Part shown: positions 3,327-60,032 of the stretch, piece after piece | Numbering within the stretch: position 1 is the first letter of the stretch | How the letters are laid out: each line of letters starts with the position of its first letter | Source of the DNA: Lytechinus pictus | Lineage: Eukaryota | Length of the DNA stretch: 64,000 nt | NCBI RefSeq assembly: GCF_037042905.1 | Contig: NC_087250.1 | Coordinates: 7,876,001 to 7,940,000, forward strand | Direction: 5' to 3' | The notes under the pieces: generated by a model | Databases searched by the model: none | What the model was told of the DNA's origin: nothing | Seen by the model: only the letters and a program-made list of their open reading frames with translations | Made by a program: the position numbers and the translations under genes

Positions 3327-3509
3327 GTAAGTTTGAATTGATTTGATTTATCAATTTAAAAGGTGCATCTACTAACTGCAACTCGCAGCAAGAATTACAC
3401 ACAGCTTACAGATGCATACACTAGTAAATATACGATGCACAGTGAAAAGTAACTATGTCCTGTAGGGAATACACTTACGTTGTTTCAGTGTGCATCTGGA
3501 AACATGGAA

Positions 3510-11432: not shown

Positions 11433-12491
11433 GACTAAGTGGATTTAAAGGGTAGAGGAGTCAAATAAATGGATGACATGTATAATAAATGAATTAACAA
11501 AAATGAAAATATTGACTAATGGAATTTATGAGTTAGAGAGAACATCAGCAAACAGAGTATAGTTATACCCTTTTTCCTTTCTCCCTGAAAAAAAAAATGT
11601 ATTATACAAAAGATCAATACTTCTCTCCAGATCTAGAGTTAGATTTCAAATGAAAATCTTATAGACTGAAACTAACCTTAAAACATTCGGCTTCATGGTC
11701 AAAATAGACACAGCTTGCCCTTTTTCTTAGCTGCATGTTTAAATTATTGGTATTATATTGACTAAAGAGAAATATTCTGATCCAGGGGCGAATTCAAGAT
11801 GGGGGGTTGTTCTATGACAAGCCATGGGACACAGGTCACCACCATAAGAAGCATTTGATTTTTTTAAGTCATTAAATGGGGAGGGGCACGAAATGTGGGG
11901 TTTTGCCACCCCCCTCCCTATTCCGCGCATGGTAATATACTGCCTGATTTTGATCGTATTGGTGGTAAGTAAACTAGCTAAGGTTTGAGTACTGAATAGA
12001 GAATATCCATCGACAACAGGTGGTGATCTGAAATATGAATTTAACTGCGCTGTTCTGGATATGCCTATTGTCATTATAGCACGTTTTATCCATTCATAAA
12101 GAAAGTGTTCACACTGCCCGCCTGATGAAAAATCTTACTCCGTGTGTCACACATGCACCATTCTACAAGTGTTCAATCTGGGTGATAGAAACATTGTCCG
12201 TGTGAACAATTCTATTCGAATATCGATTCGCATTTTTTGTTCTTTTTTGTGTGAAACGAAAGCCCTTCTAGTATGTAAATGATCTCAACATGTGTCTAAT
12301 TCTGTGTTGTTTCAGTATGAAGATTTCTTTTCATACTTGTATCTTGAACACCTTATGAGGAATAAGGATCAAAGTGACAATATTTCATCGAGAAGATTAG
12401 GATTATTCGCAGTAGAGGGCATATATTCCTTTGTAAAGACTAGACTGTGTCCACTTTGATTTGGAGGAGATCTGTTCAAGGTGTTATCACG

Positions 12492-14480
12492 ATGGCATTT
12501 TTAAACCGCTCCACTCGGAAGACCCTGGCCAAAGCTATCAGTGTAGGAATAGCCATCGCTCTCGTCATCATCCTAATAGAAACACTTGAAAGCCGCCAGG
12601 AGACTTTTTCGAGTGTCCAAGGTCCTGGAGGAATGAAAGGGGACTTCTTGCATGCAATGACCTGGATACAAGCTCCAAATAAATTACGAGTTGACAAAGC
12701 GAAGAGTTTCAGCTACAGGGGAAGGCACTGGAAGTACCTGTCGGAAGCTCTTGTAGATCTGCTGGGCTTTTCTAGTAAATGCCAGGAAGTTGGTCCTGAT
12801 GACAGGAAAGATGTTCGTCGTTCTGTGAGCGTGGTAATCATTCTACATTCTTCCCCATCTCAGAGGGCACTCAGAGGTAAAATACGGGAGACATGGGCGA
12901 ACCCTGAGGAACGCCAGAAACTCGGTGTCCTTGTGCAGTTTGTCATGGGTGGACCAGAAAGTCAGAGCGAAGAAAAGCTGCTCCAAGAAGAGTCGGATGC
13001 CCATGGGGATATCTTGGTTGGGAATTTCACCGATACTGTCCGAGCAACGACCTTGAAATCTCTGCTGGGGCTTCGATGGACTTTTGCGTTTTGTTCTCGA
13101 ATCAAGTACATCATCGAGGCAAGAGACAATACCTTCATATGGCTGGAAAAACTGCCGAAGGTTCTGCAGATCTTCAAAAGGGAAAAACATCCTCAATTTA
13201 TTCTCGGGGCTCGATCGAACACCTCCAGGGTGGACCATAACTCCCCGAGTGAATTCTACGTCGGAAGTGCCGTTTTAAATCGAGAATACTACCCACCTTA
13301 CTGCTCTTTGCAAGCTGGCATTGTCATTCCTTTTGATCTGGCTATGAGCTATTACAAATACACTTGGTCAACGCCGTCACTGGTTCCATTTGCCGACGCC
13401 TTGATAGGTCTGACTGCAGAAGAGTATGGCTGGGAAGTCAGACAGAGCAACGCTTTCTCTCTTAAACATATTGAACCCAACGACGCTTGTCCAATAAGTT
13501 CACACTTCACCGCAATCTCTCCCAGCTTTTACCATATCCCCAAAATATGGGAAGAACTGAAAGACAAGACGTTCATGAAGGAATGTGAGGACCCCGACAT
13601 GGACATCATCTACGCTGGAAAATCAGCAAACAATGCCAAGTATTTTGAAACGGTGTTGACAACTGTGAAGCAAAGTTCTGACGTCACTTGCACTGATCCG
13701 GATGTGTTCATGCTGGTTCTCATCGCATCCCATCCAGCCCGCAAGACCTCCAGAGATGCCATCCGACAAACCTGGGCCAACAAGGGATTCTTGAGTTCTC
13801 TCTCAAGGAAGGTCAAAGTGTTGTTTCTCATCGGACAACCCTACCCACCCGATCCTGCACTGAGATTATCTCTAGACGAGGAGCACGGGCAGGACGGCGA
13901 TCTCCTGGAAGGGAATTTCTTGGATACCTTCAAGAACCTGACCTTAAAACATATGTTTGGTTTAACCTGGACAGCTAAACACTGCAACAATGCAAAATAC
14001 TTCCTCAAGGGTGATGACGACGTATTCGCCAACCTCAGAAACATCTTGCACCTTCTGCAGGAAATGAACAGCCATGGCAAAGGTCTTCAAGAACTCTACC
14101 TCGGAGACGGCGGAAGGGAATACCGCAACAAAAATCAGGATAAGAAGTACCATGTAGCGTCTGAGGAATACAATGGCAGGGTCTTCCCTCAGTATTGCGT
14201 TGGCGGGGGCTACATCCTCTCCATAGACCTTATAGATCGTCTTCTCAAGGAGTCGCTGCGGACACCGTTGGTGTCCTCAAGGGATGATGTATTCGTTGGT
14301 ATCCTCCTGAGGAGATTAGATGTGCCTTTGATTTACAATGATGGCTTTCACTACAGAATGGGTCCGACCGATACATGTTCCCTCAGGAACAAAGAATTCA
14401 TGGTGATGCATGTCCACGATGACGTCGAGAAACTAGTGAAGATTTGGTTAAACTTCGTTAATCCAAACGCAGTTTGCTGA
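12492..14480 (+). CDS. Beta-1,3-galactosyltransferase/GlcNAc-transferase family (GT31) protein with two tandem Galactosyl_T domains; single coding exon, 662 aa
   Basis: First ATG at 12492; N-terminal TM segment ISVGIAIALVIILI; motifs R.AIRQTW, EE...GDLL.GNF.DTF.NLTLK, LKGDDDVF, FPQYCVGGGY, DDVFVG in domain 2 and parallel motifs in domain 1; candidate acceptor at 12313-12315 suggests a 5'UTR intron. Confidence 0.93.
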   Translation: MAFLNRSTRKTLAKAISVGIAIALVIILIETLESRQETFSSVQGPGGMKGDFLHAMTWIQAPNKLRVDKAKSFSYRGRHWKYLSEALVDLLGFSSKCQEVGPDDRKDVRRSVSVVIILHSSPSQRALRGKIRETWANPEERQKLGVLVQFVMGGPESQSEEKLLQEESDAHGDILVGNFTDTVRATTLKSLLGLRWTFAFCSRIKYIIEARDNTFIWLEKLPKVLQIFKREKHPQFILGARSNTSRVDHNSPSEFYVGSAVLNREYYPPYCSLQAGIVIPFDLAMSYYKYTWSTPSLVPFADALIGLTAEEYGWEVRQSNAFSLKHIEPNDACPISSHFTAISPSFYHIPKIWEELKDKTFMKECEDPDMDIIYAGKSANNAKYFETVLTTVKQSSDVTCTDPDVFMLVLIASHPARKTSRDAIRQTWANKGFLSSLSRKVKVLFLIGQPYPPDPALRLSLDEEHGQDGDLLEGNFLDTFKNLTLKHMFGLTWTAKHCNNAKYFLKGDDDVFANLRNILHLLQEMNSHGKGLQELYLGDGGREYRNKNQDKKYHVASEEYNGRVFPQYCVGGGYILSIDLIDRLLKESLRTPLVSSRDDVFVGILLRRLDVPLIYNDGFHYRMGPTDTCSLRNKEFMVMHVHDDVEKLVKIWLNFVNPNAVC

Positions 14481-15091: not shown

Positions 15092-15360
15092 GATAGCGTT
15101 GTGGCCCAGTGGATTAGTCTTCGGACTTTGAAACAGAGGGTCGTGGGTTCGAATCCCAGCCATGGCGTAATTTCTTTCAACAAGAAACTGATCCACAGTG
15201 TGCTGCACTCAACCCAGGTGAGGTAAATGGGTACCGGTAGGAAGTAATTCCTTAAAAAGCTGTGTGCGCTATGAACGCTTAGCTTAGCCGGGTAATATAG
15301 GAGCGCCTTGAGCACCTAACAAGGTGGATATGTGCGCAATATAAATACCCTATATTATAA
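15092..15360 (+). mobile_element. tRNA-derived SINE
   Basis: A-box tggcccagtgg, B-box ggttcgaatcc, shared body gtgctgcactcracccaggtgaggt, short TAT tail. Confidence 0.85.
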
Positions 15361-16766: not shown

Positions 16767-17137
16767 ATCCTGTCAATAACCACATTTTGTCATGGTTAAA
16801 ATAACATCCTAACATCCATGGTAGATTGAAATTATGACCTTTGTCGTGTAAGGTTTATTTTGATTATTTGACATATTTGGTGTTCCATTTAGCATGCAGT
16901 GCGAATTGCTTTCTTTGAGGTGGAAACGTAAATTGTTTTGCAACCTAAGGACCTTGATTATGTGTAATAACATAAATAAATGACCGTCATAATTATGTTG
17001 AAACAAGATGTATTTCTCGGATTGGCTTTTCTCAATACTCACTCGTCACGAAAAGGCAAATAGACAACGTGGGTAGTGGACGAACTGATGGTAGACCAAA
17101 TGATAGTAGACAAGTTGGTAATTGGACCGATTGGCAT

Positions 17138-17406
17138 TAATCTTCGGACTTTGAAACATAGGGTCGTGGGTTCAAATCCCAGCCATGGCGTAATTTCCTT
17201 CGGCAAGAAATTTATCCACATTGTGCTGCACTCGACCCAGGTGAGGTAAATGGGTACCTGGCAGGAATTTATTCTTTGAAATGCCAACGCGCTGTAAACG
17301 GCTGCGAGGCTAAAGCCAGGGTAATAATATCCAATTAAGCGCATAGGGACGCATTTGGCAGTGATATGCGCTATATAAGCATGTTGGTATTATTATTATT
17401 ATTATT
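17138..17406 (+). mobile_element. tRNA-derived SINE, 5'-truncated
   Basis: Same body as the 15092 copy; (TAT)n tail. Confidence 0.85.
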
Positions 17407-19641: not shown

Positions 19642-19956
19642 ATGGGAATATGACAGAAGAAATTCGATTGTTCGAAACCCGTTATGGCGGAGGGGGGGGG
19701 GTAGTCTGCTCAGCGATCCCTTCTCTCGAGTTGAGGGGTCCGAATGCAAATCCTACAATAAACTGTGTACTGAGTGCCTTTTCGCTCACTCTGAATTGAC
19801 CCAGCAAGTTTTATGTGCGCTAGTCTTTGTGGGGAAAACACACTTCTTGATAAAAGTTTCTATCAGGGTCTGTGCCTTCAAACTAGGGCGGGGGCGGCAC
19901 TCCATTTTGGAAAGGGTAGGGCTGTGTGACCCCAACATCCAACACCATACCCTTAA

Positions 19957-20544
19957 AGATCAAGTCCACCCCAGAAAAATGTTGTTTTGAATAAATAGAG
20001 AAAATCAATCTAGCATAACGCTGAAAATTTCATCAAAATCTGATGTAAAATAAGGAAGTTTTAAAATTTCGCTCATTTTTCACAAAACAGTGATATGCAC
20101 AACTCAATGACATGCAAATGAGACAGACGATGATGTCCTTCACTCGCTATTTTTTTTTTTTTATTGTTTGACTTATACAATATTTAATTTTTTACAGATT
20201 TGACAATAAGGACCGACTTGACTGAACTAAATAGTATTTAATGCTAATTCCACATGTTCAGGGATGAAGTATAATCGTTGTTTCTCTTGGCAATGAGGAG
20301 AAAATTATAATATTTCATATTTCATAATAAAATACAAAAGAAATAGTGAGTGGTCAGAGTGGATGACGTCATCAGTCTCCTCATTTGCATACCGACCAGG
20401 ATATGCATATAACTGTTTTATGAAATCAAGGGAAACTTTAATATGTCACTAACTTTCCTATTTTACATTTGATTTCAATGTAATTTTTAGTGTAATGCTT
20501 GTTGGAATTTTCTCTTTTTATTCAAATCGACTTTTTGTTGGGGT
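19957..20544. mobile_element. Kolobok-like TTAA MITE copy (right end eroded)
   Basis: Collinear with 1558-2149. Confidence 0.8.
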
Positions 20545-25300: not shown

Positions 25301-26973
25301 TATCCAAGTGAAGCCCCTTTCACAATAGTGAATTATGTAAGAAAAAGAAAGAAATTGATGGCCTAATTCATCACCATCAATAATCATGATAATTGAAAAA
25401 AATAACATGGAAATAACAATGACAGTAATACTAACGATAATAACAGTAATCATAGATATAAAATAAAAATGATAATGATGATAGGCCTGTAATGGTAAAA
25501 ATGTTGATTATGAATGATGATTTTTCTAAAAATAATAGGAGCTTGATCTATTATCCGTATCTCAATAGTACTGGCTATTAAAATGAAATAATGACTAATA
25601 AGCTTAATCTTAATTTGTCATAGGCATGATAGCGTTCTTTGATGGTTGATAAAAAACATGGCATCAATACTGAATCTTGCTTGTGGTTTAATAAAAAAGT
25701 TATGATATAAAATTATAATAAAAAACAAACAATTATGTTCGAGTTAGCATCTGTGTCTGGCTTAAGTAGGCCTTCATGACGAAATACAAACAACACAATC
25801 AGAAACCAATCTGTCCAGATTCCTATTATTACTTTTGATGGTGCAAGCATAGGCCTTTACGTAGAAAAAAGACAGATTTGATAATGAACAATGAACGCGA
25901 AATAACCAAGGACAAGACGTATTAAAAAAACTGTCGTATGTGACGATTAATTAATTTCATTGAAATTATCAAGGATATGCAGAATTAAGAAAGTTTCTTT
26001 TAATCATGATTACGATTTTTTTATCAGCGTTTTTAACATTTTCAAAAGAAAGATTTTCAAATCCTTAAAAGCGGGGTCTATGAGTTGGGGGATGTTAGAC
26101 TTCTTGCATGATTTTAAGAAACACATCTGTGAAAATATCCTTCATGGAATTAATGGAAGAAAAATAAAGCGGAATAAAAACAAAGACGGCGTGTGCCTCT
26201 GTGTGTTGGTTTTTACGGTGGTATAAACACAGTTCGCTTTACTCATTTTACCCCGGCATTTTACGTTTTAAACTCTTCTCATAAAGGTGATGAAAGTTCT
26301 TAAGATGCCACGAAATTGATAATAACTTCAAAAAAGAAGGAAGAGATGAAGGAGAAGAAAAATGAGGAGATTAAACTCCCGGATTAGACTCATGGTAGTA
26401 TAGGGCCGATACAGGCGCTGGTATAGACTCAAAAATGTTTAGTCCGCATTCAACATGGACGCCACGCACAATCGCGCCTGAAAGCACGATGTGACAATAG
26501 ACAGAGAACAATACCAGACACGGCAAAAGGCACGCAAAATGCCTCACGGTCCAATAAAATAGCTTGTGTTTCTCTCTAAAAAAAACGTATAATTAATGGT
26601 TGAAACGATTACAAAAACTTATTTTCTTTGAGGAGAGATCTCAAGGATTCAGGAAAACCCAATTTTATTGTAAATCATTGACAGTTGCTAAGCACTTTCA
26701 TTCAATGAAAGGATGACTTTCCGCGTGAAACATGTGAAAAAGGCTCCGAGAAGTCTGAAAGCGGGCGAAACTTCAGAAGCGATTTTCTCGTAAAAATACT
26801 TTTTATAAACTCTCGTACCTGGGACATTTAAAGACTATTTTCTCAGCAAATACTATGTCCCTTAGCATGTGCTATATACCAAATTAAAGCTTGAGAAATG
26901 GAGAATCATAATCTTAGAAAAAATTATGTTTCAAAAAATCGAATTCTGTCTGCTTTTGACAGGACGTGTCACA
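22369..26973. mobile_element. 4.6-kb TGTGAC...GTCACA TIR element inserted in a (TA)n tract; no transposase ORF seen
   Basis: tgtgacttgacctgtcgaaatcagacagaattcg vs cgaattctgtctgcttttgacaggacgtgtcaca; TA repeats on both sides; internal direct duplications. Confidence 0.8.
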
Positions 26974-27079
26974 TATATATATTGTAAAGAAATGGATGAA
27001 GAGAACAATGGTAGGCGTAGCTTAAATCAAGGTTCCCCAGAGCTATCTACCCTTTGGAAAAATTGGTGATGCCGAAAAA

Positions 27080-27151
27080 TGTCTCTGCCGGGAATCGAAC
27101 CTGGGCCCCCAGCTTTGAACGCCGGTGCCTTAACCACTAGACCACAGAGAC
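27080..27151 (-). tRNA. tRNA-like gene or pseudogene, anticodon TCA, in left arm
   Basis: GTCTCTG/CAGAGAC acceptor stem, GTCT/AGGC D-stem, CCGGC-GTTCAAA-GCTGG anticodon arm, T-arm with one mismatch, followed by T5. Confidence 0.55.
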
Positions 27152-27249
27152 GGGTTAGTGGCTAGGGCGACCCCGATCCGATTGACCGTCAGATAGACAA
27201 ATTTTCGACACTATACCAATTATAATTTCCTTTGTCGGGTGAAGGTCAA

Positions 27250-27680
27250 GGTCAATTTTCACTTTCTTTTCTAGGTAGCAATTTCTGGAATAAAGTACCA
27301 GTCGAAATCAAATTGAAGAAATCAAGAAAAAGTTTTAGGAATTCTCTAAAAAGTTATTTGTCTTCATAAATTCACGCCATCAACGTGTAAGTCTACAGTA
27401 AATAATTAATACAATTAAGATACTTCAAAAAATGTTGATGATAACCCATTACAAGGAATATATTGTAATTTAGATTTTTGTTTTGTTTTGTTTTTCCTTC
27501 TTAAATGTGCATTTTGTAATATTTGTAGGGCCAGGCTCGATTAGCACTTGTGCTATTTTCTGGTCCCATTTACCATTGTATTTTTATACATGTGTAACTG
27601 TTATGCAATTTGTTTTATAACCTGTAAACATGTGAATATTGTTGGTAAATAAATAAATCAAATCAAATCAAATCAAATCA
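27250..27680 (+). mobile_element. 3' end of a LINE (CR1/L2-like) inserted in the foldback spacer
   Basis: FWNKVPVEIK...RKSFRNSLKSYL* coding tail, AT-rich UTR, aataaa then (aaatc)n tail; aagg on both sides. Confidence 0.6.
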
Positions 27681-27733
27681 AGGTGGGTTTCGAACAATGA
27701 CAATCGGATCGGGGTCGCCCTAGCCACTAACCC

Positions 27734-27805
27734 GTCTCTGTGGTCTAGTGGTTAAGGCACCGGCGTTCAAAGCTGGGGGCCCGGGTTCGATTCCCGTCAG
27801 AGACA
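27734..27805 (+). tRNA. tRNA-like gene or pseudogene, anticodon TCA, in right arm
   Basis: 72-nt cloverleaf, A-box tggtctagtgg, B-box ggttcgattcc, followed by T6. Confidence 0.55.
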
Positions 27806-27950
27806 TTTTTTCGGCATCACCAATTTTTCCAAAGGGTAGATAGCTCTGGGGAACCTTGATTTAAGCTACGCCTACCATTGTTCTCTTCATCCATTTCTTT
27901 ACAATATTTAAATAAAATAGTTGCCAAAGCTGTTGTACATGTATAACTTT

Positions 27951-27984
<34 letters not shown>

Positions 27985-28320
27985 GACATATATATATATA
28001 TGCCTATGTGTGTGTGTGGGTGGGTGGGTGTTTTTTGTGATCGAGCCCTTTGGAACGCTGATTCATGATTTTGCCCCCCCAATCTGAAAAATGGATCGAC
28101 GCCCCTGCATGCGGATAGTTGATGATGGTAGACGTAGACCAAATGATAGTAGACGAGTTGGTCATTGGACGACTTGGTATTAGACCAATTGGAAATAAAC
28201 CCTTGTATTCGCTGCATCACGAGAGTATGATAATAATCAATACATTTTTTAATTGTTTGATTCCAATGATTTTGAAATATGTGGTTATCACTTTGATCAT
28301 AAACCGATGAAAGGGTATCA

Positions 28321-28700
28321 GGACAACTACCCCCTGGACAATCACCCCCCGGACAACTACCCCCCGGACAATTACCCCCCTAGGACAATTACCCCCCGGA
28401 CAATTACCCCCCGGACAATTACCCCCTGAGGACAACTACCCCCCGAGGACAATTACCCCCCGGACAATTACCCCCCGGACAACTACCCCCCGGACAACTA
28501 CCCCCCGGACAATTACCCCCCGGACAACTACCCCCCGGACAATTACCCCCCGGACAACTACCCCCCCGGACAATTACCCCCCGGACAATTACCCCCGGAC
28601 AACTACCCCCCGGACAACTACCCCCCGGACAATTACCCCCCGGACAACTACCCCCCGGACAACTACCCCCCGGACAACTACCCCCCGGACAATTACCCCC
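28321..28700. repeat. 15-bp minisatellite GGACAA(C/T)TACCCCCC, left arm
   Basis: About 25 tandem units. Confidence 0.95.
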
Positions 28701-30967: not shown

Positions 30968-31358
30968 GGTAATTGTCTGGGGGTAATTGTCCGGGGGGGT
31001 AGTTGTCCAGGGGGTAATTTTCCGGGGGGTAAATGTCCGGGGGGTAATTTTCCGGGGGGTAATTGTCCGGGGGGTAGTTGTCCGGGGGGTAGTTGTCCGG
31101 GGGGTAATTGTCCGGGGGGTAGTTGTCCGGGGGGTAATTGTCCGGGGGGTAGTTGTCCGGGGGTAATTGTCCGGGGGGTAATTGTCCGGGGGGTAGTTGT
31201 CCGGGGGGTAATTGTCCGGGGGGTAATTGTCCTCGGGGGGTAGTTGTCCTCGGGGGGTAATTGTCCGGGGGGTAATTGTCCGGGGGGTAATTGTCCTCGG
31301 GGGGTAATTGTCCGGGGGGTAGTTGTCCGGGGGGTGATTGTCCAGGGGGTAGTTGTCC
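30968..31358. repeat. 15-bp minisatellite GGGGGGTA(A/G)TTGTCC, right arm
   Basis: Reverse complement of the 28321-28700 array. Confidence 0.95.
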
Positions 31359-32313
31359 TAGAACCCGATGAAAGCCCTCTTTACTACGGGTTGAGAGGGG
31401 GAGGGGGTCATAGTAGAAGTTATTCTGCTGTGAAAACCCTTCAGTCGAGTTAAGTGGTCTAAATACGAAGAATACAATGACTTGTGCATATAACGAGGGC
31501 CCTCAATCTCATATAATTATGCTAGTCTTGTGTGAAGACCTACTTGTTAATCAAAGTTCCGATCGGGCTTTGTGCCTGCAGCTAGAGGAATAGGTAAAAG
31601 CGACAGTGTGACTGTTTACAGCGTGTTCACAAGGGGGACTATGTGAGTATGCGATTCACACCGTTTAAACATAGAGCTATTTCTGTAATAGCTCTATGGT
31701 TTAAATGCTGAAATTTAACAGCGTGAAGGTGATTTCACATTGTGTTCCACACTGTGAACACACTGTGGAACACTGGCTTCTTTCCAGTAGGGATTATTCC
31801 CGATAATCAACATAACATCAGTTTTTCTCATTCTCATGTCACTTCTAACCAGTGAGTAAATGAGTTTTCATTAAATAGATATAAGGATTGCTCAAACTTT
31901 CGTTCTGGAATAGCAGCTTTATATTTCGTTTCATTTTTCTTCACGATTTTCATTTCGTTGATTGATAAGCAAGTGAACCTTAATTTCCTCAGTAATATAT
32001 GAATTTTATTTCAAACGACTGAAACAACTTTTTCAAAGCTATAGCTCACTACACTCGCTCGCCGCTAGCTTTCAGTCTTTGACACTTACACCCCGTGAAA
32101 GACATTTCTGGATACCATTCAGTCTTCAAACCACTGAAAATTTGCTCGCTCGCACAGTCATATGCATGGTCAACCCATCTGTAAATCAATAATCTCTTTC
32201 ACAAGAAAACCATTACAACAGCCATCGACAAAAAAAAATCGCATCATGTTTTTTAACTTTCATTACAAAACGTGATAGATGGTAATATTGACACGTTTTA
32301 TTTACCCCCATAT

Positions 32314-34331: not shown

Positions 34332-34874
34332 TAAGGTCCTCTCCGAGGGACCTGGGCACCGTCTTACCAAGAGTTACGATAGATCCAGTCAATCTCGACT
34401 GTATGGTAATCCATACCATAATTTTTTTTTCTACAGGAAAATGCTCATAATCTCCTTACTAAATAAAAAAGAATCACATCCCTTTTGAGAGGCACAATTA
34501 AGATTTTTAATGTAAAAATGCCTTTAAAACAGAAGCGTGCCCCCTTTTGAAAGTGAAGACCTTTGAAATAACAAAAGTTATATGCACATCCTGGTCCATC
34601 TATGCAAATGAAGGGAACTGATGACGTCACTCACTCACTAATTCTTGTGTATTTTATTATCTGAAATATGAAATATACCAATTTTCTCTTCATTGTCCTG
34701 TGAAACAAAATTTTATTTTTGCCTGAACATGTGGTATTATACTCTTGGTTTTCATGGTTCCGTCAAATCTGTAAAAAATGAAATATTGGATAATTCAAAC
34801 AATAAAAAAAGAAAAAGAAATGGTGAGTGAGGTACATCGTTGACTCTTTCATTTGCAGTGTAACCCAATGCCGT

Positions 34875-35296: not shown

Positions 35297-36051
35297 ACTG
35301 AATGCATATAAAATTGTGAAAAATCAGCGAAACTTAAAAATGCCGTGGCTTTCTTCCGATTTCGTTGAAATGTCAGCGTTATGCTTGTTTGATTTTATCT
35401 ATTCTTTCATATCAACACCATTATCTGGGGTGCATGGACTTGACCTTTAGATAGACGGGACGGAATCATTGGTCTCGGTCTATCCAGAAACAGGGGCTAT
35501 AACGGCAGACGATATAGTCATTGTCAAGAAACTCAAGGAAGAAATATGAGCATCAATTAAAGAAGAAGTATAGTAAAGCATTATTGCATTGCATACATTT
35601 TTTAAAGCGGAAGTGAACTGTGTGTGGTCTCTCATTGGCTGTGTGTTATAAATACATAGTCTTAAAATATACGTTTTCAGATATCTTAAGACTACAGATA
35701 ATAAATTGACCTAATTGTACTTGTATCGAGAAACTAAAATGTTTTGAGAGGAAAAGTAACTGTTTTGCTACTTTGTAACTTAACTATTGCGGTATAAAAT
35801 GTATTGTGTAGTTAATTACATGTTATCATTCAAGTGGGTCTATATTACTAGACTACACTAGCATTATGGGTCAGGAAACTGGCCAGGTATGAGTAGTTGA
35901 GGACTTGAGATGGCGCCATTGGTTCGTATCTGCTTTAATATCGTCATATGTTGATGGTTTGCCAATACTATGTTATTATTATTGATCGTAAATAACTTTG
36001 ATAAAGGTTTCTTGAAACTCCTATTTGTGCGAATTAATTGTAGTCTGTTAA

Positions 36052-36721
36052 CGGTCAAGTCCACCCCAGAAAAATGTTGATTTGAATAATTAAAATAGAA
36101 AAAAAAAATCAAACTAGCATAACGCAGAAAATTTCAGCAAAATCGGATGTAAAATAAGAAAGTTATGACATTTTAAAGTTTTCCTTATTTTTCTCAAAAC
36201 AGTGATATGCACAACAGAGTGACATGCAAACATAGAGATACATACACATAACGCGTAATCTATGCATGCAAATGAGACAGTCGATCATGTCCCTCACTCA
36301 CTATTTCTTTTGTTTTTATTCTTTGAATTATACAATATTTTTTTTTACAGATTTGACAATAAGGACCAACTTGACTATATAAAAAAATAGTAAAACATTA
36401 TAGTACTGAATAATGATAAGTCCACATGTTCAGGAAGGAGTTGATTATTGTTTCACTTGACAATGAAGAGAAAATGAGGATTTTTTTTCTATATCTCATC
36501 CAATAAAATACAAAAGAAATAGTAAGTGGATGACGTCATCAGTCTCCTCATTTGCATACCGACCAGGATGTGCGTATAACTGTTTTGTGACATTAAGTGA
36601 CATTTTAAAATGTCATAACTTTCTTATTTTACATCCGATTTTGATGAAACTTTCAGGGTTAAGCTTGTTGGATCTTTCTCTTTTTATTCATATCAACTTT
36701 TTGTTGGGATGGACTTGTCCT
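36052..36721. mobile_element. Kolobok-like TTAA MITE copy
   Basis: TTAA|cggtcaagtccacccc ... ggatggacttgtcct|TTAA. Confidence 0.85.
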
Positions 36722-38695
36722 TTAAACAAGCTCACAAGAGTTTGCGGGGTGGACCAAAAACTGTATTGATAATTTCCACTTTAGGTAGCTTCGATTCCGA
36801 CCCAAAAACCCACAAAACGTCATAATTTTCCTCTATCTTATATGTGATGTCAATGAAACTTCAAAAATCCCCCAAACGTTATTCCTATCGTAATATTTTG
36901 TAATGATTCGGTAAATAGGAGTGAATTGCGAAATTGGCATTAACTTGAAACTTCACGAGGTTTTCGCCAAGCTCATTTCGTGTCCCATAGATTTTCTCAG
37001 AATTAACAGTATAGACTTTATTTCCTTACTTTTGCATTTTTTTTCTTCATTTGAATAAGTTTTGGCCTGTTTGAAAATATTAAAATGAGTAGTTCTAGCT
37101 GTATTTTCTTGAAATAGTGAGTAGGCCCTAAATGATTTTAGGATCTTGCTATCAAAATGAATTGTTTATTGTTGTTTCTTTACGAAAATATTCCTTGAAC
37201 AACCATGAAATCCCCTTTCTTATCTGTTTATCGCCGTGTTCTTCTTATCAAATCTTTTCCTTTCTTGTCTTGTCCTTCGATCTTCTTTCTTTCTCTCTTT
37301 CTTTCTTATTTTTTTTTTCTTTCTTTCTTTTCTAAATATGCGCAAATCATCATTCATGCCAGAGACCTCCCCGTGTGATTTCAGTTCTCCTCTTTTTTTT
37401 TTCTTTCCTAATTATCACGTACGCAAGGGGGAACCACACCAGCTCTTGGTGGACCCCTCATTTCTATAATGTCCTTTATTTCATACTGCTTTTCTTTAAA
37501 ATCATAATGTCAATCCTTAAATTTGTATATGATTTATATTACTTTGTATTGAATTGAACAGTTTGTCTCTACATACAAGTCAGTGTTGACGCTCTCTACG
37601 TTCGGAATTCGTTGCATTTAAATTACGGTACAGGTACTCAGCTCAGATTTTTTTTTGTAAACATTGCACAATACAATTGGCCTCGGGGAATATTTATAAC
37701 GTAATAAATAAGAGGCTGAATTCTATGAGATAATTTTAATTTACACGCTCACTGTACGAGTGCAAGTTTCCAGAATGGACTGAAAACAAGGTCTGAAACA
37801 AGGTAAGAATAATCTTGATAATCCTATTGATTTCTAAATTCGAGTTTTGGGCCTCAATTTTTATCGGAAACTAAAGTTACTCGTTCAAATGAAAGAACGC
37901 GCGCCCGCACTGTGGAAAAGAGTTGGAAGCTTTTACCATCACCAGCGCATGCAATTTTTATGCACGCAAGTTAAATACGGTCATCACGATTCCGTGGCAC
38001 GGCAATTTGGATTGCACATGAACAAGAACGACACAAGACTCCATATGGTGCGATGTCCATACAACACAAAAAAGAGAGATAAAAACTTCAAATATTTGCC
38101 CAACATTTTCTTAACATTATTACAACTTAGAGTTAGACTACAATAAAAAAATAAGAGAGGAGGAAATAAGAAAAGTAACTAGTAAGACTAAGACTAGACT
38201 CTAGAGGAACTTCAGGCAGTATGGACTATGGTCAGTTCCCCCATGTCTGCGCGGTCTCCCAAGTCTGCGCACCCGCGTATCTGCGCGATTCTAGTAAAAG
38301 AAGATACGCAACGAGCACGAACTTTACACATGCAATACATAGACAGGTATTCATAAAAAAATCCGACTCAAAATGGTGAAAAAATAATGAATTCAGGGCA
38401 TTTCATGTGACGCCCTCAAAATACAGCCTTTCTCATCAAAATCTCCGAATCGTGTGCAAAGTGAATGAGTGCGCAGACATGGGGTACCATTTTTTTTTTC
38501 AATCTGAAAATGACTGCCCAAGGTTTTTTCAAGAAAATCCTATATTCTCTTTCATTTTTTAATGAGAAATTTGGTATACTTACTCTCAATAATATAAGGA
38601 ACATTATTATCCAAAAGATTTTGTGAAATAAGAAGAAATTCATGTTAAATCTTAACTCAAATTGTTAGGTGCGCAGACTTAGGGCCCACCATCAT

Positions 38696-40060: not shown

Positions 40061-41565
40061 ACTCACCGCTATCCGTTCTATACAATTTGCCACTGTACAG
40101 TAATGTTTGCATACACTATATGCAAGTAGATAGCAAGAATATCGTCAAAAGTAGGTACTGGAAGTAAATAATGAATAATGAAAAAAAGCCTCATGTCATT
40201 TGAAAAAATTTCGGACGCAAATCCGATACCTTCTCATGGCCAGTAATATATTCTTTATTAGCATTATTGTCAAAAACATTGCTCAAAACTTACCATTACA
40301 TTTCCTAAATAGTGAAAAATAAGGCTGAAATGCTCCATAAAATGTGTCTGGAAATGCATACCAGTATTTAGGCCCATCATCATCATCATCCGTTAAAGTA
40401 CAGTCCATCAGGTTGGTGTATCATCGTACTTGTAGAATTGTGCAGGAGTATCCCCAGGCCATAGGCTATACTGTGTGAGCTAGTGGCTGAAAATTGGCAT
40501 TTTTAAGTCTTTATGCTTACCTAGACTGTTTGAGCCTCTGTGAGCTGCCATGGAAACATGTCACATTGATAGATAATCAACTTGGCTACCAGAAAATGTG
40601 AAGATGTTGCTACATTTTACTACATTGTGCTCTCAAAATATAGAATGAAAATTTGAGGCAAATCCACCCATTGACTTTTTGGACACATGTCTACAGCACA
40701 AATCTGGTGCCATTGCCCACCCTTCCTAGAGTGCATTTAAATAGATTGATTGTATTGTGGAGGGGCCGGTATAAAGAAACAGTCATACACTCATATATAA
40801 TGTATCGGTAAAAGGTCCTACCTTAATATCACTCTTATATTGCCAGGCACAGCTCACTCGTATGCTATAGGTCCGCTCCGTCCGGGGGTTGAGTGGAGAA
40901 TTGCTTCTTGGATTATGTGTGTAGTATACATGTGTGCTGCGTTTGTGTACTGTGTGCAAAGTCTGTGTATTCCAGCCGGTGGGTCAGGTGACTCACGTAT
41001 GGAGTGGTCGTGTGTAGTCTGCTATCTATGTCGTCTGCTTAAACTACTACTTGGAAATCAACCCCCCTAACACCATAGCTGAGTCTAATTGAACAATGGT
41101 TATTTTGTCACAATTTTCTATTTACTGTTTGATTAAAATGCTAATTTTTCGCTTTTTCGCTATCTTAACATTTTTGCTAGACTAGGGTGCAAACATACTT
41201 AAAACTGATGGCAAGAGGCTGAACATGTTAATTTATTTCACATTTCATAATGTAGCAAAGTGACAAATGAATAGCGAATTTGAATAATTTGATTTCGGAT
41301 TCTGGTGACGTGGGTTAGATTCTCACTTGGTGCGCTAGTGCCCTTTGGTATTGGGCCTAGGCATTAATCCACATTACCAGGTCCCTAGGAGAGGACCTTA
41401 AGCTGTCGGTACTCTGGTTGCTTGAGCTAACTTAAGCATTCATGCTTTCATAGCAATCAAGGTGAAAAATCACCACCAATCACCCTCAAAATGATGACCA
41501 TTTTGTTGTTATTTTCAGGTTTGCACAAATTCTTAAGGATCTAGGACCTGATCTCCAAGGTTAGG

Positions 41566-42409
41566 ATGAAGAAACACGAGCGTCACTGCTTTCTTTCTGG
41601 TGTCTGCCCAGATGAACACTGCCAATCCAAACTGTACTTCCCATCATATGATCGCACCGTAGAGTGTACCAGCTGCGGACAAATACATGAATGCCGTTCC
41701 TTACGATCCGTTGCGGAAGTCACCGACCCAGATGTTGTTCTCCACAACATGGTGCGGAACCTTCTGATGGGCAACTTCGCGCCGAAGAAGACAACCGATT
41801 CCATCAAGGTCCTGGGTCTGTCCAACTACCACTGCAAGCTTCTGAGCCCTCTGCTGACGAACTTTGGCATGGACAAACAAGGCAAGGCCCAGCCGTTGGA
41901 GAGCTTGACGCAGAGCAACGTCTTCAACTGTTCCAACCTGGGCGGCCGTGCCTTTCTGATCCAACCGGAGCACATTGACATCATGGGGTACGGGCGGGAC
42001 CAGACCGGAAGCGCTCACTACCTTTGCAACACTTTGGAACAGATCAAACAAGTCAACGGAGACGAGGAAGTCCTGATACCGATACATGCCGATGGGGATG
42101 GACATTGTCTCGTCCACGGTATCTCCAGGGCTCTCGTTGGTCGTGAACTCTTCTGGCACGCCTTGAGAACAAACCTCAAGAATCACTTTGAAGAGAACTT
42201 GGACCGTTACAAGAACATGTTCAAGGATTTTGTGGATAATAGCGAATGGCCCCAGATTATAGCTGAGAGTGACCCAGACTATCTACCGGGGCCCAATGAG
42301 GCCATGGGGCTCCAGAATATTCATATCTTTGGTCTTGCTAACATCCTTCGAAGACCTATCGTCCTTCTTGACTCGCTCAGTGGACTAGAAAGCTTTGGTG
42401 ATTATTCAG
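41566..42409 (+). CDS. VCPIP1: VCPIP1 coding exon 1 (Cys-rich N-terminus and OTU catalytic Cys)
   Basis: ATG at 41566; donor cag|gtaatt, phase 1. Confidence 0.95.
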
Positions 42410-45400
42410 GTAATTGGTTTATCCTATATTTTTCTTCTTTTTGATCCTTGATTGTTGAATAGGTTGATTCTTAGTACTTCGCACAGCACCATATAATAAA
42501 ACTGGTCTTGGGATTTGAATTTTTTTGGTAAACATTATGTATTTGAGCTAAGGAAGGCAATCTAAACTATGCTTACAACACCGACACCAGCTATAACACC
42601 TAACTTGAAACCACTCAATGTAAGGTGTTTGTTTTCATAGCAATCTGAATTATACCTCCAACACCAATACCATCTCTAACACCAAACTTGATATCACTCA
42701 ATGTAAGGTGTTTTACTAACACCAGCACTAATACCAGACTTGTTATCACTGAGCATTTGTTGTTTGCTTTTATTCTGCTGTAGGAGTGTTTCTCCCTGTC
42801 TTAGATGCACTTGCTGAATACAGTGGAAGGATAATGTAAGGTGTTTGTTTTCATACCAGTGTATGAGTGTTTCTCCCTTGTTAAATACACCTGTAAAAGG
42901 ATAGTGACCTCGGTGTAAGGTGTGTTATTATCCGGTGTAGGAGTGTTTCTTTCTGTCTTAAATACACCTGGTGAATACAGCGTAAAGTATGATACATGTA
43001 CATGTAAACTCAATTTAAGGTGTTTGCTTTTATCCGGTGTAGGAGTATTTCTCCCTGTGTTAAATACACCGGCTGAATGCAGTGGAAAGGACGGTAAACT
43101 CAACAAACCTCTTTGTGTCGCTTGGAGCAGCTCTGGAAGAAACCACTTCATAGCCCTTGTAGGGGTCAAAGGTAAGTACAGGACCATGTTAAATAAAGCT
43201 AAGCGATTGATCCTAGAGATCATTTCTACGACTGATCAATTCAATACAATTCAATTCATTTATTTTTTCCATTAAAAAACATCAAAATATGTACAGTTGA
43301 AATACACATACTTATATACAAAAAAATAGATCAAATACATAAGCATAGCAAATTAATATTGTAAGTAAGAGAAATAAATGGAAAATGGAACACCTGTAGA
43401 AAGCTTTTTTTTAAAAGCTGGTCATTGGCAGGAGTCCAAAAGTTAACAAAATACAAATATAATAATAATATTAGATGGCACATGTATTTGAATTCAACGT
43501 CTTGCCCCCCTGTCCCAAACCCCTTTCCCATCTCTCTCTCTGGTAGAATTTTAAAATTAATATAGGCTAAAATTTGAATTGAAATGAAATTAATATGTCA
43601 AATAACAAATAAACTTTAAATTTTTTTTTGAAAGTACACATACACAATAGTCAATGTAAATCGATAATACAAATCAACCACCTGATCAATCGCTAAGTGT
43701 ACTTATTAGGCCCAGTAATGCCAACCTCTGAAACCCTAGCAATGAAATAAAAAGAGAAAATTAAGAAAAAAGTGTAACACTGAAAATTTCATCAAAATCA
43801 GAGGTAAGAAAAGAAAGTTGTGACATTTTAGATTTAAGCTTGATTTCACAAAACAGTTAAATGCACATTCTTCTCTGTCTGCAAATGAGGGAATTGATGA
43901 TGTTACCCACTCACTCTTTCTTCATTGCAAGTTTCTATTTAATCTAAATTATGATATGAAACTGGGGAAAAGCCATTAATGTGACATGTTGATATATCAG
44001 GCAAGGTTGTTTGAGCATGTTCTGAGTCTCTTGTTGCTTCACATCACCAACTTCGAATTCCGTTGCTAAAAATCAAGCTAAATATTAGGACGCACTTAAA
44101 TTATAAGTTGCAGTTCACAACTCAATGCAATACTCCAACTCCCTCATTCCTGCACGATACTTGACCTTTCCCCTTTGATTCCCATCAGGTCGTCCGTTGC
44201 CACGGTTACCAAGGTGGATGCTCTCGAAAGCCTGGGGGACGTCGCAAGAAGAGGTCAATAGATACATTGAGTTTGATGGCGATGGCATGTGCACCGTAGG
44301 GGGAGACAGGGCACTTACCGTAAGTGTTTAGTCATAACGACCAACTTTAAAATCTCTTCGAGCGTTTCACAATACATTTGTTGCAGTTCAAATAAATTTA
44401 GCTCTGTCCCTTTTATCGTTTACCTCTATTACACGGGCATTGCAGGTCTTAAATATGCAATATGAAAATAAAATCAAAATCCATATTTTATTGTTCGAAA
44501 TAGAAATATTTCGAAAATTAATTTTTTCCATGTTATCCTGGGCCCGGCAGCCAATGCACAGGGCCAGATCGACGTAGCTCTATCCCTTTATTCGTTGAAC
44601 GTAAAACAGGGTAGCAGCAGCTCCCATCTTTTAACATCTTTTGGTCTGATGTGGCTGGGGCATGAACTCTAACTCTCTCGGTTTTGAGACGGATGCTCTA
44701 CAAACTGAGCTAACACACCAGTTCTCATGATGTTTGAGAATAATAAAAATAATAACGTTTTATTTACCCAGGGTAGCCACTTCAGTTAGGACACTGCTCT
44801 ACCAGCGGGCCCTGCATAACATAAGATGTTATTATTACCCTTCTCCAATCTAAATGCTGAGCGCCTAGCAAGAAGGCAGAAGGTCCCATTTGTATAAGTC
44901 TTTGGTATGACTCGGCCGAGGATCGAACCCACAACCTCCCGTTCATGAGGCGGACGCTCTACCACTGAGCCACCTTAGTGGGTCAACATTTTTGTGCTGA
45001 AGTGATTATTGGATCCATGTTGAATTTAAATGTGGCGCGTTTTTCTAGTTTTTGGCATGTCGCAAATAATCCCCCCAACATGATGGAATGAACAGAACAT
45101 GAAAGAGCACTTCTGATTGGTTCCTGGTCCGTGTTCTGAACAAAATGCACATGTATCACTGCTCTTGATTGGCCGGCACCATTCAGAGATAGATTACTAA
45201 CCTTTGTTCTACAGAGCGCAAGTGGCTACTCCAAAGCCTGCTCTGTCATCACAGCTGCCAAGGATCTTATCCTATTTATTCGGATTTTTAAGGGGGGATT
45301 AACACTAAATAGAATTTTTCCTGTAGAAGGATTGTTGAAATTTGTAAGAATGATGTTTGGTATGTTTTTTAAGATTTTAGGCTTGAAAATAGGGTAGGAA

Positions 45401-48400
45401 ATAAAGGATAGGATTTTTTTTTCACAATTGAGGTTGGCAACACTGTGTTATGTTTTGATTTGATTTTTTTTCATATGTAGGAGAATTATGTACAGCGTCT
45501 AGTTACCGCAATGGAAGATCAGTTCCAAGACAAACATGGTGTCCATCCGTCATTAGTGTCTGATGTCTACAACTTTATCTCTAAGAGAACAGGTATGAAT
45601 AAAATAAATAATAAAATTTGGTTTTATCAGGAGCTGCTTTGTAGCATATCAGGGGTCGCGCTTATTTTTTTTCCCCCAACTAGCCTGTCTGGCTTGCCCG
45701 CCAGAAGTTATTTTGTCGAATTTTTCATTAATTCACAATATCACATGCAACACTGAAGTAACAGTTTGACTAGTTACACGGGCTAGCAACTTAAATTCTT
45801 AGTTTGCCTGCTGTGATTTTTACTGGCCATTGGCTAGCGGGCTAGTGTTATTTCAAACTCTGTATATACTTTTGCAGTTTGTTGTTAGGCATCTAGTTGC
45901 TCCCAAGATGTGCCCATGGAAACTGCTATTGCCTTCCAGTCAGGATATTGCAAGTTATTGACCAAGTGTGTAGTTGGAGCTGCTCCTCACCCTGGGTCCC
46001 GTAACACAAAGGTTAGCAATTAATCGTAAGCTTGATTGTTACGATTGATTGTACATTGTAGTCAATCGTAGAAAAATGTTCTACGATCATTGCTAAGCTT
46101 TGTGTTACGGGCCCCAGATCACAAGGAGAAGGAGGAGAACTCTACCTGGTGGGTGTTTCATGAAAGGATTTTATCCGATAGTTACCATAGTAACAGTACC
46201 TCTCAGCCAATCAACATCAGAGAAAGATGTCAGATCTGACAACTTGTTGGATGAAAATGTTGATGAAACACTCCCCAGATGGCTATGAAGCAGATCGTCA
46301 TGCCTCATCTAATCTGCAGTGTCTCAGGTGCCTTATCCTCAAGGCTACAATAGCTCATCCTCTGGTCTGAAGGAAGGCGGAGAACTCAACCTGATGGCTA
46401 TGAAGCAGATCGTCATGCCTCATCTAATCTGCAGTGTCTCAGGTACCTTATCCTCAAGGCTACAATAGCTCATCCTCTGGTCTGAAGGAAGGCGGAGAAC
46501 TCAACCTGATGGCTATGAAGCAGATCGTCATGCCTCATCTAATCTGCAGTGTCTCAGGTACCTTATCCTCAAGGCTACAATAGCTCATCCTCTGGTCTGA
46601 AGGAAGGCGGAGAACTCAACCTGATGGCTATGAAGCAGATCGTCATGCCTCATCTAATCTGCAGTGTCTCAGGTACCTTATCCTCAAGGCTACAATAGCT
46701 CATCCTCTGGTCTGAAGGAAGGCGGAGAACTCTACCTGATGGCTTAACAAACCAATGTTTCTGGGACCATTGTTGTTGAGTTAATTTTCTTTTGATATTC
46801 TTGATGTACAGGTATTGGTGGTATTCACCAGAATGTGATCATTGAGCATACCAGAGCATCGGTTCAGGATCATCAATTATACAGATGCCTCATCTGTTCT
46901 GCAGTGTCCCAGGTACCCTATCCTCAAGGCTACAGTGGCACACCCTCTGGTCTCAAGGAAGGAGGAGAACTCTACCTATTGGCTAAACAAACCAATGGCA
47001 CTTTACAAGAAGGACGGGTCTATGACTTCCCTACACAAGGTAATAATTATGTTAATCCTTAATTATAGGTGGTTAGTATTTTTTTTGGTCAAAGGCCCAT
47101 TGCTTTAAAAAGTTGCTATTTAGTAAGTTTGTCATGCTCAATAGCCTATCAGCATCAAGGATTTGGAATTTCTTTGCATAGTCTCATGAATAATTATAAA
47201 TCTTACCAAAGGTTTTGTGTTTTCATAAATGCAAATTCCTTATTCTTTGGTGTTCAGGACATCATATTCTGTGTACTTCAGTATTATTGACAAAACATAT
47301 ATGTTAAAGCAATAATTATGGAAGTAGTAAAGTCTAAGAAAAAACATGTAAGTTTCCATTATATGGATACTGTGGTATTCAGATAAAACTTGTTGAAGGC
47401 ATTCTCAACATGGCAAGCAAGTTTGATTGGCAGATTTTCCACTGATGCAAGGTTTTGTTTATTGGAGTTTGCTTTCATTTTCCATAATTTTTCATGATTC
47501 TTCCCAGATTCTGAGAAATGTTTTAGTCTTCAGTATTGCAGAAAATCAGGGATTTTACCTGTTACATGGTCAATAAAATGTCAAATAGCAAATTGATGTG
47601 TTTTTTTTTTCTTTTCTTGTTTGTCAACAGACATCCAGTGTACCTACGATGCATCCTCAGATGAACTCATTCCGGACCATACCTTCAATCAGGATGCCAC
47701 GTGCCCATGGTGTAAAGGGTTAGTGTTAAATGAATGTCAAGGCAGGGTTCAAATGTCACAAGTTCAAAGGAATTCAAAGGTCGCACATTGAGTTTCAAGG
47801 CCTAATTGATAAAAAAGGTTGAGTTTCAAGTTATCATCTTCCGTGAAAGAACAGTCTACCAGGTTGGTGTTTCATCTTACTTGTAGAACTGTGCAAGAGT
47901 ATGTGCAGTGCTGTGGAAGATCTATTCTACTGCGGTTAAAAAGAATCAGCGCAGTCTTGGCGCAGTTAGATTTTCTGCACCTCATCCTTGAAGCTGGCTA
48001 CTGAAATGCAATTAACTGTAGTGGCAGGGAGAATATTCCAGTGTAATGGCATCAGGAATAAAGGTTTTCTGGTAACAGTGCAAGCATGTGGGACGTGTAA
48101 CCTCATCTGATGACCACGAAGCGAGGTGAACGTAGCAGCCTGGTTGAAGTACTGTACCGTTGGTACATCAACAATTGTATTTACCAAGCGATAAACTATC
48201 ACCACCTTGAACTAGGCTCTTCTCTCTTTAAGGGTGGGCCACTGTAGCTGTCGTAGCATATCGGGTTAATTGGGTTTAATGGTTATTGGGTCACAGAGAT
48301 CATTGAGACTCAAAATTCGTTGGGTTTCAAGGGCCATATATGGTCTCGTCATTGTGTCTCAAAGGTCGTTATGTTTCAAAGGTCGTTGAGTTGCAATGGT

Positions 48401-59990: not shown

Positions 59991-60032
59991 TGTAGAGAGA
60001 AATGATACATACTTTTATTTAATCCCTGTATT

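Follow-up and report, generated by a model that had tools for sequence, protein, structure and literature searches.

The window, as we call the whole stretch of 64,000 nucleotides analyzed here, contains a pair of inverted arms of about 200 nt, each of which carries a complete tRNA-gene-like module with the anticodon TCA directly followed by a run of Ts, and both arms belong to a high-copy repeat family of this sea urchin genome. We regard it as probable, with a sizeable residue of doubt, that this locus is a foldback or MITE-like element which is non-autonomous and propagates at the DNA level and that its tRNA modules are relics of the Pol III type. Selfish DNA is the most likely nature of the repeat, in preference to a functional suppressor of stop codons. 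The features of the locus are compiled in Table 1.

Arms, ends, and loop of the locus

Near-perfect inverted arms of ~202 bp had been claimed in a preliminary description of this DNA, and repeat search, global alignment, and folding as single-stranded DNA all bear out this claim. Aligned globally, 26983-27184 and 27701-27903 are reverse complements that differ by two substitutions and one indel in a T run over 203 columns, and the repeat search recovered the inverted pairs 27075-27184/27701-27810 (110 nt, 98%) and 26973-27079/27807-27913 (107 nt, 98%). Folding of 26983-27903 as single-stranded DNA yielded -313 kcal/mol versus -92 ± 6 kcal/mol for 20 shuffled sequences; given the resulting z-score of -36, the inverted structure is not due to chance. 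With these 202- and 203-nt arms, the locus possesses the terminal inverted repeats that characterize MITEs.

Table 1. Features of the foldback locus (positions refer to the window)
Feature	Position	Strand	Remarks
(AT)5 flank	26973..26982	.	Abuts the left end; other copies align across these 10 bases
Left-arm tail, 92 nt	26983..27074	-	Outer edge ...CTTTACA; second T5 inside; summed depth 2-6x10^5
T5, Pol III terminator-like	27075..27079	-	Follows the left module immediately
Left tRNA-like module, 72 nt, TCA	27080..27151	-	A.C T-stem mismatch, private change at 27102
a', degenerate partial inverted copy of the unit	27152..27246	+	Shuffle-tested alignment, folding, contig depth
Secondary insertion, 438 bp, 28% G+C	27247..27684	+	Bounded by AAGGT; low depth; (AAATC)n-type tail
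Continuation of the family sequence, GGGTTTCGAACAATGACAA	27685..27703	+	Follows 27246 in other copies; loose-end consensus
Right-arm leader a''	27701..27733	+	33/33 identical to the reverse complement of 27152-27184
Right tRNA-like module, 72 nt, TCA (27767-27769)	27734..27805	+	C.T T-stem mismatch, private change at 27797
T6	27806..27811	+	Directly after the right tRNA-like module
Right-arm tail	27812..27903	+	Ends ...CTTTACA
Repeated sequence right of the arm, then (CA)n(TA)n microsatellite	27904..27956	+	Found behind the tail in a minority of copies

The family to which the arms belong was assessed through short de Bruijn contigs from four runs (X1, X6, X14, and X8), in which repeats may be mis-joined and whose summed depth does not equal copy number. 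Between 23 and 43% of the words sampled from 1501 bases around the locus were common to 19 runs, and 6% were shared with one more; the matching runs stem mostly from one organism and from several studies. The depth of the X1 contigs rose from 499-748 in the left flank to 193,567-590,729 over 26955-27260 and 265,479-626,547 over 27720-27923, and the X6 contigs gave a corresponding picture (200-343 in the left flank, 1.5-6.4x10^5 in the arms). In X14, the left flank was not covered at all (depth 0) and the arms were covered 24,250-152,881 times; the nature of this run as RNA is guessed, and its arm cover is uninformative on Pol III products. From 72 to 115 distinct X1 contigs cover single arm positions. 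Even so, the great abundance of the arm family in the source organism is clear. In a second organism, represented by X8, the family seems to be rarer or to have diverged further: there, depths were 45-448 in the arms and 17-61 in the flank, and most contigs were less than 95% alike. A depth at the 10^5 level, compared with 10^2-10^3 beside the arms, also matches the short, non-coding, high-copy character of MITEs, and no family-matching open reading frame was found within the element. BLASTN detected no further copy of the element within the 64-kb window, and exact-pattern scans of viral, metagenome, and prokaryote genome contigs did not detect any there.

Outer ends of the form TGT...ACA with ATAT on either side are both present as claimed in the preliminary description. 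Since (AT)5 makes up the left flank and contigs reveal an identical AT-repeat flank at other copies, ATAT is not demonstrable as a target-site duplication; the (AT)5 itself either belongs to the end of the element or is a preferred AT-repeat target. The loose ends of 39 X1 contigs before 26973 continue as AT repeats and mutually disagree (agreement 0.62), which points to many different flanks at this left outer edge. On the right-hand side, the bin 27924-27974 retains a depth of 76,317 in X1 (~15% of the arm depth), and the loose ends behind 27917 (15 X1 and seven X6 contigs) are similar to the sequence of the window itself. We also considered the right flank (27904-28060) as an extra copy of the unit and rejected this idea, as the alignment scores amounted to only 17-32 and were driven by TA/TG repeats.

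The high-copy sequence does not end with the left arm, as high depth runs past the arm's inner edge at 27184 to ~27246-27260. The 33 nt located upstream of each tRNA-like module (27152-27184 on the left) are the beginning of an inverted copy of the unit that is both degenerate and partial and that we designate a'. On the plus strand, the alignment of a' with the right-hand unit starts at the variable loop, spans the T arm, the acceptor strand, and the T run, and reaches into the first ~25 nt of the tail; a' contains a D-loop remnant, the T arm, the 3' strand of the acceptor, the T run, and the start of the tail. The local alignment score of 54 compares with 23.3 ± 4.3 (maximum 40) for 300 shuffles, and a score of 50 was obtained against 19.9 ± 3.7 (maximum 35) for 500 shuffles. 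Owing to the complementarity between the leader and the body of the tRNA, the two together fold strongly (-49 kcal/mol, z -4.0). The high-copy block is a decayed palindrome that consists of a full unit and its degenerate, partly deleted inverted counterpart a'. On their inner sides, the arms end unequally: the left unit extends to 27246 and beyond, and the right one stops at 27701.

The segment following a' has a different history. Its depth in X1 is ~200-680, with increases up to 1,364-3,444 toward the 3' end; the motif AAGGT is present at 27242-27246 and again at 27680-27684, and an (AAATC)n-type run is located at the end. In total, 39 X1 and 25 X6 contigs exit from the window's sequence at 27246, and the first 19 letters of the consensus of these loose ends are those of the window at 27685-27703, their sole match in the window, with no mismatches. 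The 438 bp in between are a later insertion that looks like the 3' part of a non-LTR retroposon. The 516 bp separating the arms can consequently not be viewed as cargo, as 438 bp of them are made up by this secondary insertion. Freed from it, the element measures ~483 bp, 405 bp of which are arm, and the loop comprises ~78 nt. Behind the 19-mer, the majority linker of the family (…GCCGCCATGCC) differs from the right-arm leader of the window.

The tRNA-like modules and the family majority

A search of both arms with ARAGORN, as the preliminary description had recommended for a tRNA finder, returned one module with the anticodon tca in each arm, for which the program's label 'SeC' derives from the anticodon alone. 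Both modules matched the Rfam tRNA family (RF00005) with 55.4 and 53.3 bits at a gathering score of 29, and they are the only two tRNA matches in the 64 kb (ARAGORN; Rfam at E <= 0.01). According to the pair table, the acceptor, D, and anticodon pairs are all standard in both modules, and each copy contains a single non-standard pair in the T stem, a different one on the left than on the right. ARAGORN, Rfam, and the pair table hence agree with the earlier claim of a 72-nt cloverleaf with one distinct T-stem mismatch per copy, and inspection of the sequence likewise confirmed that T5 and T6 are positioned right behind the discriminator A, that the modules point outward, and that position 32 is occupied by a G.

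The positions involved in tertiary contacts are standard (U8, A14, G18G19, U33, A37, the T-loop GTTCGAT, and the discriminator A). Internal Pol III promoters possess A-box and B-box consensus motifs, and the modules contain an intact A-box-like sequence (TGGTCTAGTGG) and an intact B-box-like sequence (GGTTCGATTCC), with a match to the Rfam consensus. Judged from these motifs, binding of TFIIIC and Pol III by the modules is plausible. We take their D and T arms to resemble metazoan sequences of the tRNA-Glu type. The assignment of a cloverleaf is based on ARAGORN, Infernal, and the pair table; thermodynamic folding did not serve as a basis for it, as the bare 72-mers do not return the cloverleaf and their z-scores (-1.5 and -1.6) are unexceptional. 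Additional Rfam matches near the locus, of miRNA-like and Plastid-ycf2 type, were below the gathering score, corresponded to TA/CA repeats or to the antisense strand of the tRNA, and were discarded.

The contigs permit a comparison of the two window copies with the bulk of the family. At 27102, the T of the window is replaced by C in 185,793 of a summed depth of 189,823 (72 contigs, X1), and at 27797, the T is replaced by G in 514,780 of 515,660 (93 contigs, X1); each of these two bases accounts for more than 97% of the depth in X1, X6, and X14. The preliminary description had derived a 'consensus' tRNA from just the two window copies, and this consensus turns out to be the family majority, in which both T-stem pairs are restored. 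Since the majority carries the pair-restoring base at 27102 and at 27797, the two T-stem mismatches are private mutations of the arms concerned. Among the 40 differences listed (98 further ones exist), no variant of the anticodon (27116-27118 and 27767-27769) was found, and the anticodon loop is, as far as these listed differences show, retained in the family majority. Besides the one private change in each arm, the listed differences do not include any departure of the arms from the family majority. TCA would simply be the founder state of the family.

One foldback element or two insertions

The preliminary description had interpreted the locus as a DNA element with tRNA cassettes in its inverted arms. 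This interpretation is partly supported, namely by the inverted arms themselves and by the recurrence of joints between such arms in other copies. The joints come from those listed (15 of 109), and each of them is represented by a single contig with a depth of 22-159. One X6 contig proceeds from 27244 through 32 other letters to the right tRNA at 27737, and another one joins 27186 straight to the right-arm leader, so that a near-perfect palindrome results. Furthermore, X1 and X6 share a short form that is made up of the termini only (27011>27879; ~29 plus ~25 nt). Among the contigs listed, which are few, at least three different centres occur, and such heterogeneity of the centre is a property of FB-type elements. 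These data support the conclusion that the joining of inverted arms recurs in the family, as it would in a foldback family; the decayed palindrome of the high-copy block points in the same direction. An empty-site joint was not found among the 15 of 109 joints listed. The sole locus of the family in the 64 kb is a dimer, and this would be unlikely if the copies of the family were mostly solo and randomly placed.

We propose the following structure for this foldback element. The unit comprises the tRNA-gene-like module, whose internal Pol III boxes are intact, whose cloverleaf is complete, and which is directly followed by a T5-6 run, and a tail of ~92 nt that ends in ACA; upstream of the module, the unit is present once more as a partial inverted copy that has decayed. 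Two such units are arranged head to head, with the tRNA modules directed outward and the tails serving as termini. The family, which is non-coding, was probably amplified recently, and the 438-bp retroposon-like insertion entered the loop at a later time. Conserved sequence is located both upstream of the tRNA and beyond the T run, so that no Pol III transcript can contain the whole unit, and we infer from this that the family spreads at the level of DNA. Most likely, the two identical outer ends would be acted upon by a transposase provided in trans; among the open reading frames of the window, no transposase or integrase domain was found. The tRNA modules would be relics or hitch-hikers of tRNA or SINE origin and may still bind TFIIIC and Pol III. 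The anatomy, the high copy number, the restored T-stem pairs of the majority, the insertion, and the recurring joints are established by the data; how the element transposes, which enzyme it uses, and any Pol III activity belong to the proposed scheme.

The foldback reading is opposed by the unequal inner ends of the arms, the mismatch between the majority linker and the right-arm leader, and the ~15% of depth that persists past 27917. The left and the right unit look like a full unit beside a truncated one. A rival explanation is that the arms are not the terminal inverted repeats of one transposon and that two separate insertions of one non-palindromic unit came to lie head to head; we consider it unlikely, even though it is the most serious competitor of the foldback reading. 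One unit would then be full-length (26973-27246, followed by 27685-27703) and the other truncated upstream (27701-27913); the two may perhaps have landed side by side through a preference of the family for its own sequence or for AT repeats. The unequal inner boundaries fit this scenario, as does the finding that the left unit follows the family consensus across the insertion until the right arm begins, and the AT-rich ends could be tails of the units and not a shared target-site duplication. An identity of 98% between the arms is equally expected of two young, independent copies; since each arm, except for its one private change, matches the family majority among the differences listed, the similarity of the arms does not discriminate between the two explanations. 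What speaks against two insertions is that the family occurs just once in 64 kb, as a pair whose arms are ~80 bp apart when the insertion is subtracted, and that other contigs join inverted arms with other loops, among them a tight palindrome and terminal-only forms, the latter present in two studies. Moreover, the conservation upstream of the tRNA and the terminator placed before the tail leave no obvious route for retroposition with 5'-truncation.

Known element classes, function, and genomic surroundings

SINEs of the SINE2 type, including a family present in the window, are like the foldback element in possessing a tRNA-like module with A- and B-box-like motifs. This genuine tRNA-derived SINE family is represented in the window by six copies with a 5' tRNA head, T4 only, a body, and a simple-repeat tail. 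When the module of the foldback element was aligned with the SINE head, significant scores of 40-46 versus ~17 ± 3.3 for shuffles were found for four of five copies; the truncated fifth head reached 27, with a shuffle maximum of 29. The head forms the 5' end of the window SINE and is associated with T4, whereas in the foldback element repeat sequence precedes the tRNA and T5/T6 follow it. Both arms share 33 nt upstream of the module, so that the tRNA does not constitute a 5' head, and T5/T6 behind the discriminator provide just that Pol III terminator which is missing between the head and the body of a SINE. With 95 nt of conserved repeat upstream of the left tRNA (27152-27246) and a terminator before the tail, the locus was rejected as a canonical tRNA-SINE. 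A common origin of the foldback tail and the SINE body was dismissed as well (scores of 17-25 versus ~20 ± 3.6 for shuffles), and an apparent extension of the alignment past the tRNA was not significant on its own. The initial view that the arms are part of a dispersed repeat and represent neither a SINE nor a tRNA-Sec gene is upheld by the upstream repeat, the T5/T6 runs, the module length of 72 nt, and the high contig depth.

With MITEs and foldback elements, the locus has in common that it is short and non-coding, that its inverted arms are long, that it is present in high copies with AT-rich flanks, and that its centre is variable. It differs from these elements by the complete tRNA-gene-like module with its terminator and by arms that are free of tandem sub-repeats. 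Such tandem sub-repeats are characteristic of the arms of FB-type elements; our repeat search did not reveal any family of direct repeats, and hence no FB-type tandem sub-repeats, inside the arms. A full-text literature search found no description of tRNA modules in the arms of MITEs or foldback elements; in Repbase or Dfam, which catalogue the repeats of sea urchins, the family may already be listed under a name. The locus is best filed as a variant of two known kinds, the MITE/foldback elements and the elements with a small-RNA-gene module in the terminal repeat, in which the tRNA-in-arm architecture is unusual.

Ginger elements possess TGT...ACA termini, 4-bp target-site duplications, and an integrase-type transposase. 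The TGT...ACA termini of the locus are alike, but its ATAT flank sits in an AT repeat, and no integrase-like partner of the Ginger type was detected among the open reading frames of the window. Dada elements target tRNA and snRNA genes and split the host tRNA gene at the insertion site. They resemble the locus in that tRNA sequence is found at the borders of a DNA element; the locus differs by containing one complete, inverted tRNA module per arm as a part of the repeat itself.

The nearest printed analogue, as judged from the available part of its description, is the TRIMp3 group, which comprises Helenus, Ajax, and Cassandra and carries tRNA- or 5S-derived modules in both LTRs (Kojima, 2024; PMC10886601). 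According to the same part of this paper, the direct LTRs of TRIMp3 elements flank a PBS and a PPT, and the elements retrotranspose; their high copy numbers inflate tRNA predictions, including those of 'suppressor' tRNAs, and the modules are regarded as probably not coding for any functional tRNA or RNA (PMC10886601). Helenus is described there as an LTR retroelement that is non-autonomous, contains a tRNA-like Pol III promoter within its LTR, and makes 4-bp target-site duplications in animals (PMC10886601). As far as this account goes, TRIMp3 elements and the foldback element are alike in their small-RNA-derived, Pol III-type module in both terminal repeats and in being short and non-autonomous; they differ in the direct orientation of the LTRs, compared with the inverted arms and the DNA-level spread that we argue for here. 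It is very improbable that the arms represent solo LTRs, or pieces of a TRIM of the Helenus kind, that came to lie inverted by chance or by rearrangement. A tRNA-like sequence in a terminal repeat with a ...CA end, as described for Helenus in the available text, would fit this idea; yet the repeats are inverted and not direct, the high-copy block is itself palindromic, and inspection by eye revealed no TGG-type primer-binding site after ...ACA in either arm. In addition, Echinodermata are not among the six animal phyla given for Helenus in the available part of the paper (PMC10886601).

With respect to function, the roles as suppressors, insulators, or small-RNA sources that had been suggested in the preliminary description are unsupported so far. 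There is a rather slim chance that thousands of Pol III-competent UCA modules are scattered through the genome, that a fraction of them would give rise to tRNA-like small RNAs or to low UGA read-through, and that they might form TFIIIC-bound boundaries. If this were true, the family would be an inverted-repeat (class II) counterpart of TRIMp3 and would represent a new route for the multiplication of tRNA genes. If the architecture holds genome-wide, foldback DNA elements would, besides SINEs and LTR-type TRIMs, multiply complete tRNA modules together with a terminator by the thousands. Such copies would then inflate 'suppressor' and 'SeC' tRNA calls in the annotation of echinoderm genomes and would matter for maps of Pol III and TFIIIC sites in a major group of developmental models. 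The nested palindromes would likewise provide a readable record of the growth and decay of arms and would ease the study of foldback-driven genome instability.

We attach hardly any probability to the view that the modules are working tRNA genes, either for an opal (UGA) suppressor or for a selenocysteine tRNA, that were duplicated in inverted orientation. The full cloverleaf, the standard tertiary positions, the Rfam scores of 53-55 bits, the T5/T6 runs directly behind the modules, and the perfect T stem of the family majority would be in keeping with such genes. Selenocysteine tRNAs are ~90 nt in length and have a long variable arm and extended acceptor and T helices; a tRNA-Sec gene was rejected on these grounds, as the modules comprise 72 nt with 7/5 acceptor/T stems and a variable loop of 4 nt. 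Against a suppressor tRNA stand the non-canonical G32, the T-stem mismatch in both window copies, and a repeat depth that exceeds that of the surroundings hundreds-fold. So many active UGA suppressors would be harmful to the cell, and uniformity within a young repeat family is no evidence of selection. A canonical anticodon loop (Y32, U33, R37) in an intact cloverleaf is not present in either window copy, with a G at position 32 and one T-stem mismatch in each. G32, the mismatch in each local copy, and the fact that the modules belong to a huge, young repeat family make a decoding role unlikely. That a single tRNA pseudogene locus was merely duplicated on the spot in inverted orientation, or was doubled by an assembly artefact, is just as difficult to believe: palindromes can arise from replication errors or from errors in long-read assembly, but the arm is found at very high depth in at least three studies of one organism and also in a second organism, each arm carries its private substitution, and the loop contains a separate insertion.

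The locus lies in repeat-rich DNA between a single-exon open reading frame for a double galactosyltransferase (12444-14480) and a VCPIP1 gene. A neighboring foldback structure (28320-28700/30968-31361) has arms that are made up of 15-bp units. The host is an echinoid, as judged from the exon at 41545-42444, which encodes VCIP135_N and OTU domains and shares 95% identity with a VCPIP1-like sea urchin protein; its next protein matches are from other echinoderms.

Foldback and palindromic repeat families

Each arm of the large foldback consists of a 15-bp unit (GGACAACTACCCCCY) repeated in tandem. The two arms are 96% complementary to each other across 381-383 nt and flank a spacer of about 2.3 kb. 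This arrangement resembles that of the classical sea urchin TU/foldback elements, which possess 15-bp repeats in their outer domains. Individual copies of the ~600-680-bp repeat family match each other with 75-83% identity in direct and with 68-70% identity in inverted orientation. Since the copies match one another in either orientation, the family itself is palindromic and represents a second foldback/MITE-like family in the window.

Repeats and open frames in the 64-kb window
Feature	Position	Remarks
Large foldback, 15-bp-unit arms	28320-28700 and 30968-31361	inverted arms
~600-680-bp repeat family	1553-2153, 19953-20544, 36048-36726; also 34573-34857, 43746-43922	
SINE copies	15096-15260, 17136-17329, 50553-50700, 52391-52667 (minus strand), 58742-59022, 60029-60313	
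Further very high-copy repeat	28026-28200	just right of the main foldback locus
Inverted repeat pair	4245-4698 and 55011-55641	50 kb apart
Near-perfect hairpin	63058-63183	~125 nt
Open frame	12444-14480	678 aa, uninterrupted; two Galactosyl_T stretches, E 4.6e-59
ORF fragment	48257-48613	weak reverse-transcriptase match (RVT_1), E 0.0079, under curated cut-off

A tRNA-derived SINE family and high-copy repeats

Six copies of a ~280-bp tRNA-derived SINE family are present in the window. Its members begin with a tRNA-like head at the 5' end, followed by only T4, and terminate in a TTA/ATT-type repeat; their T arm appears as 'GFEPTT' in ORF translations. The Rfam tRNA model did not match any of the six copies at E 0.01.

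In the sequencing run X1, the further very high-copy repeat reached a contig depth of 26,000-276,000, a summed value that is not a copy number. It ends abruptly at position 28107, and a second repeat starts at about 28134, where 136 X1 contigs have a common upstream consensus.

Distant inverted repeats, a hairpin and open frames

The members of the distant inverted repeat pair are 98% (321 nt) and 95% (143 nt) identical. The right-hand member falls within the VCPIP1 gene region and adjoins nested inverted repeats (54385-54749/55145-55327); hairpin-like Rfam matches at 54524-54602 were sub-threshold. When compared with a plant miRNA model of Rfam, the near-perfect hairpin scored 59.7 and 57 bits on the two strands, both short of the model's gathering score (90); the hairpin probably represents a palindromic repeat of small size.

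The ORF fragment is likely a decayed non-LTR retroelement, and the uninterrupted frame looks like a single-exon beta-1,3-galactosyltransferase with tandem domains.
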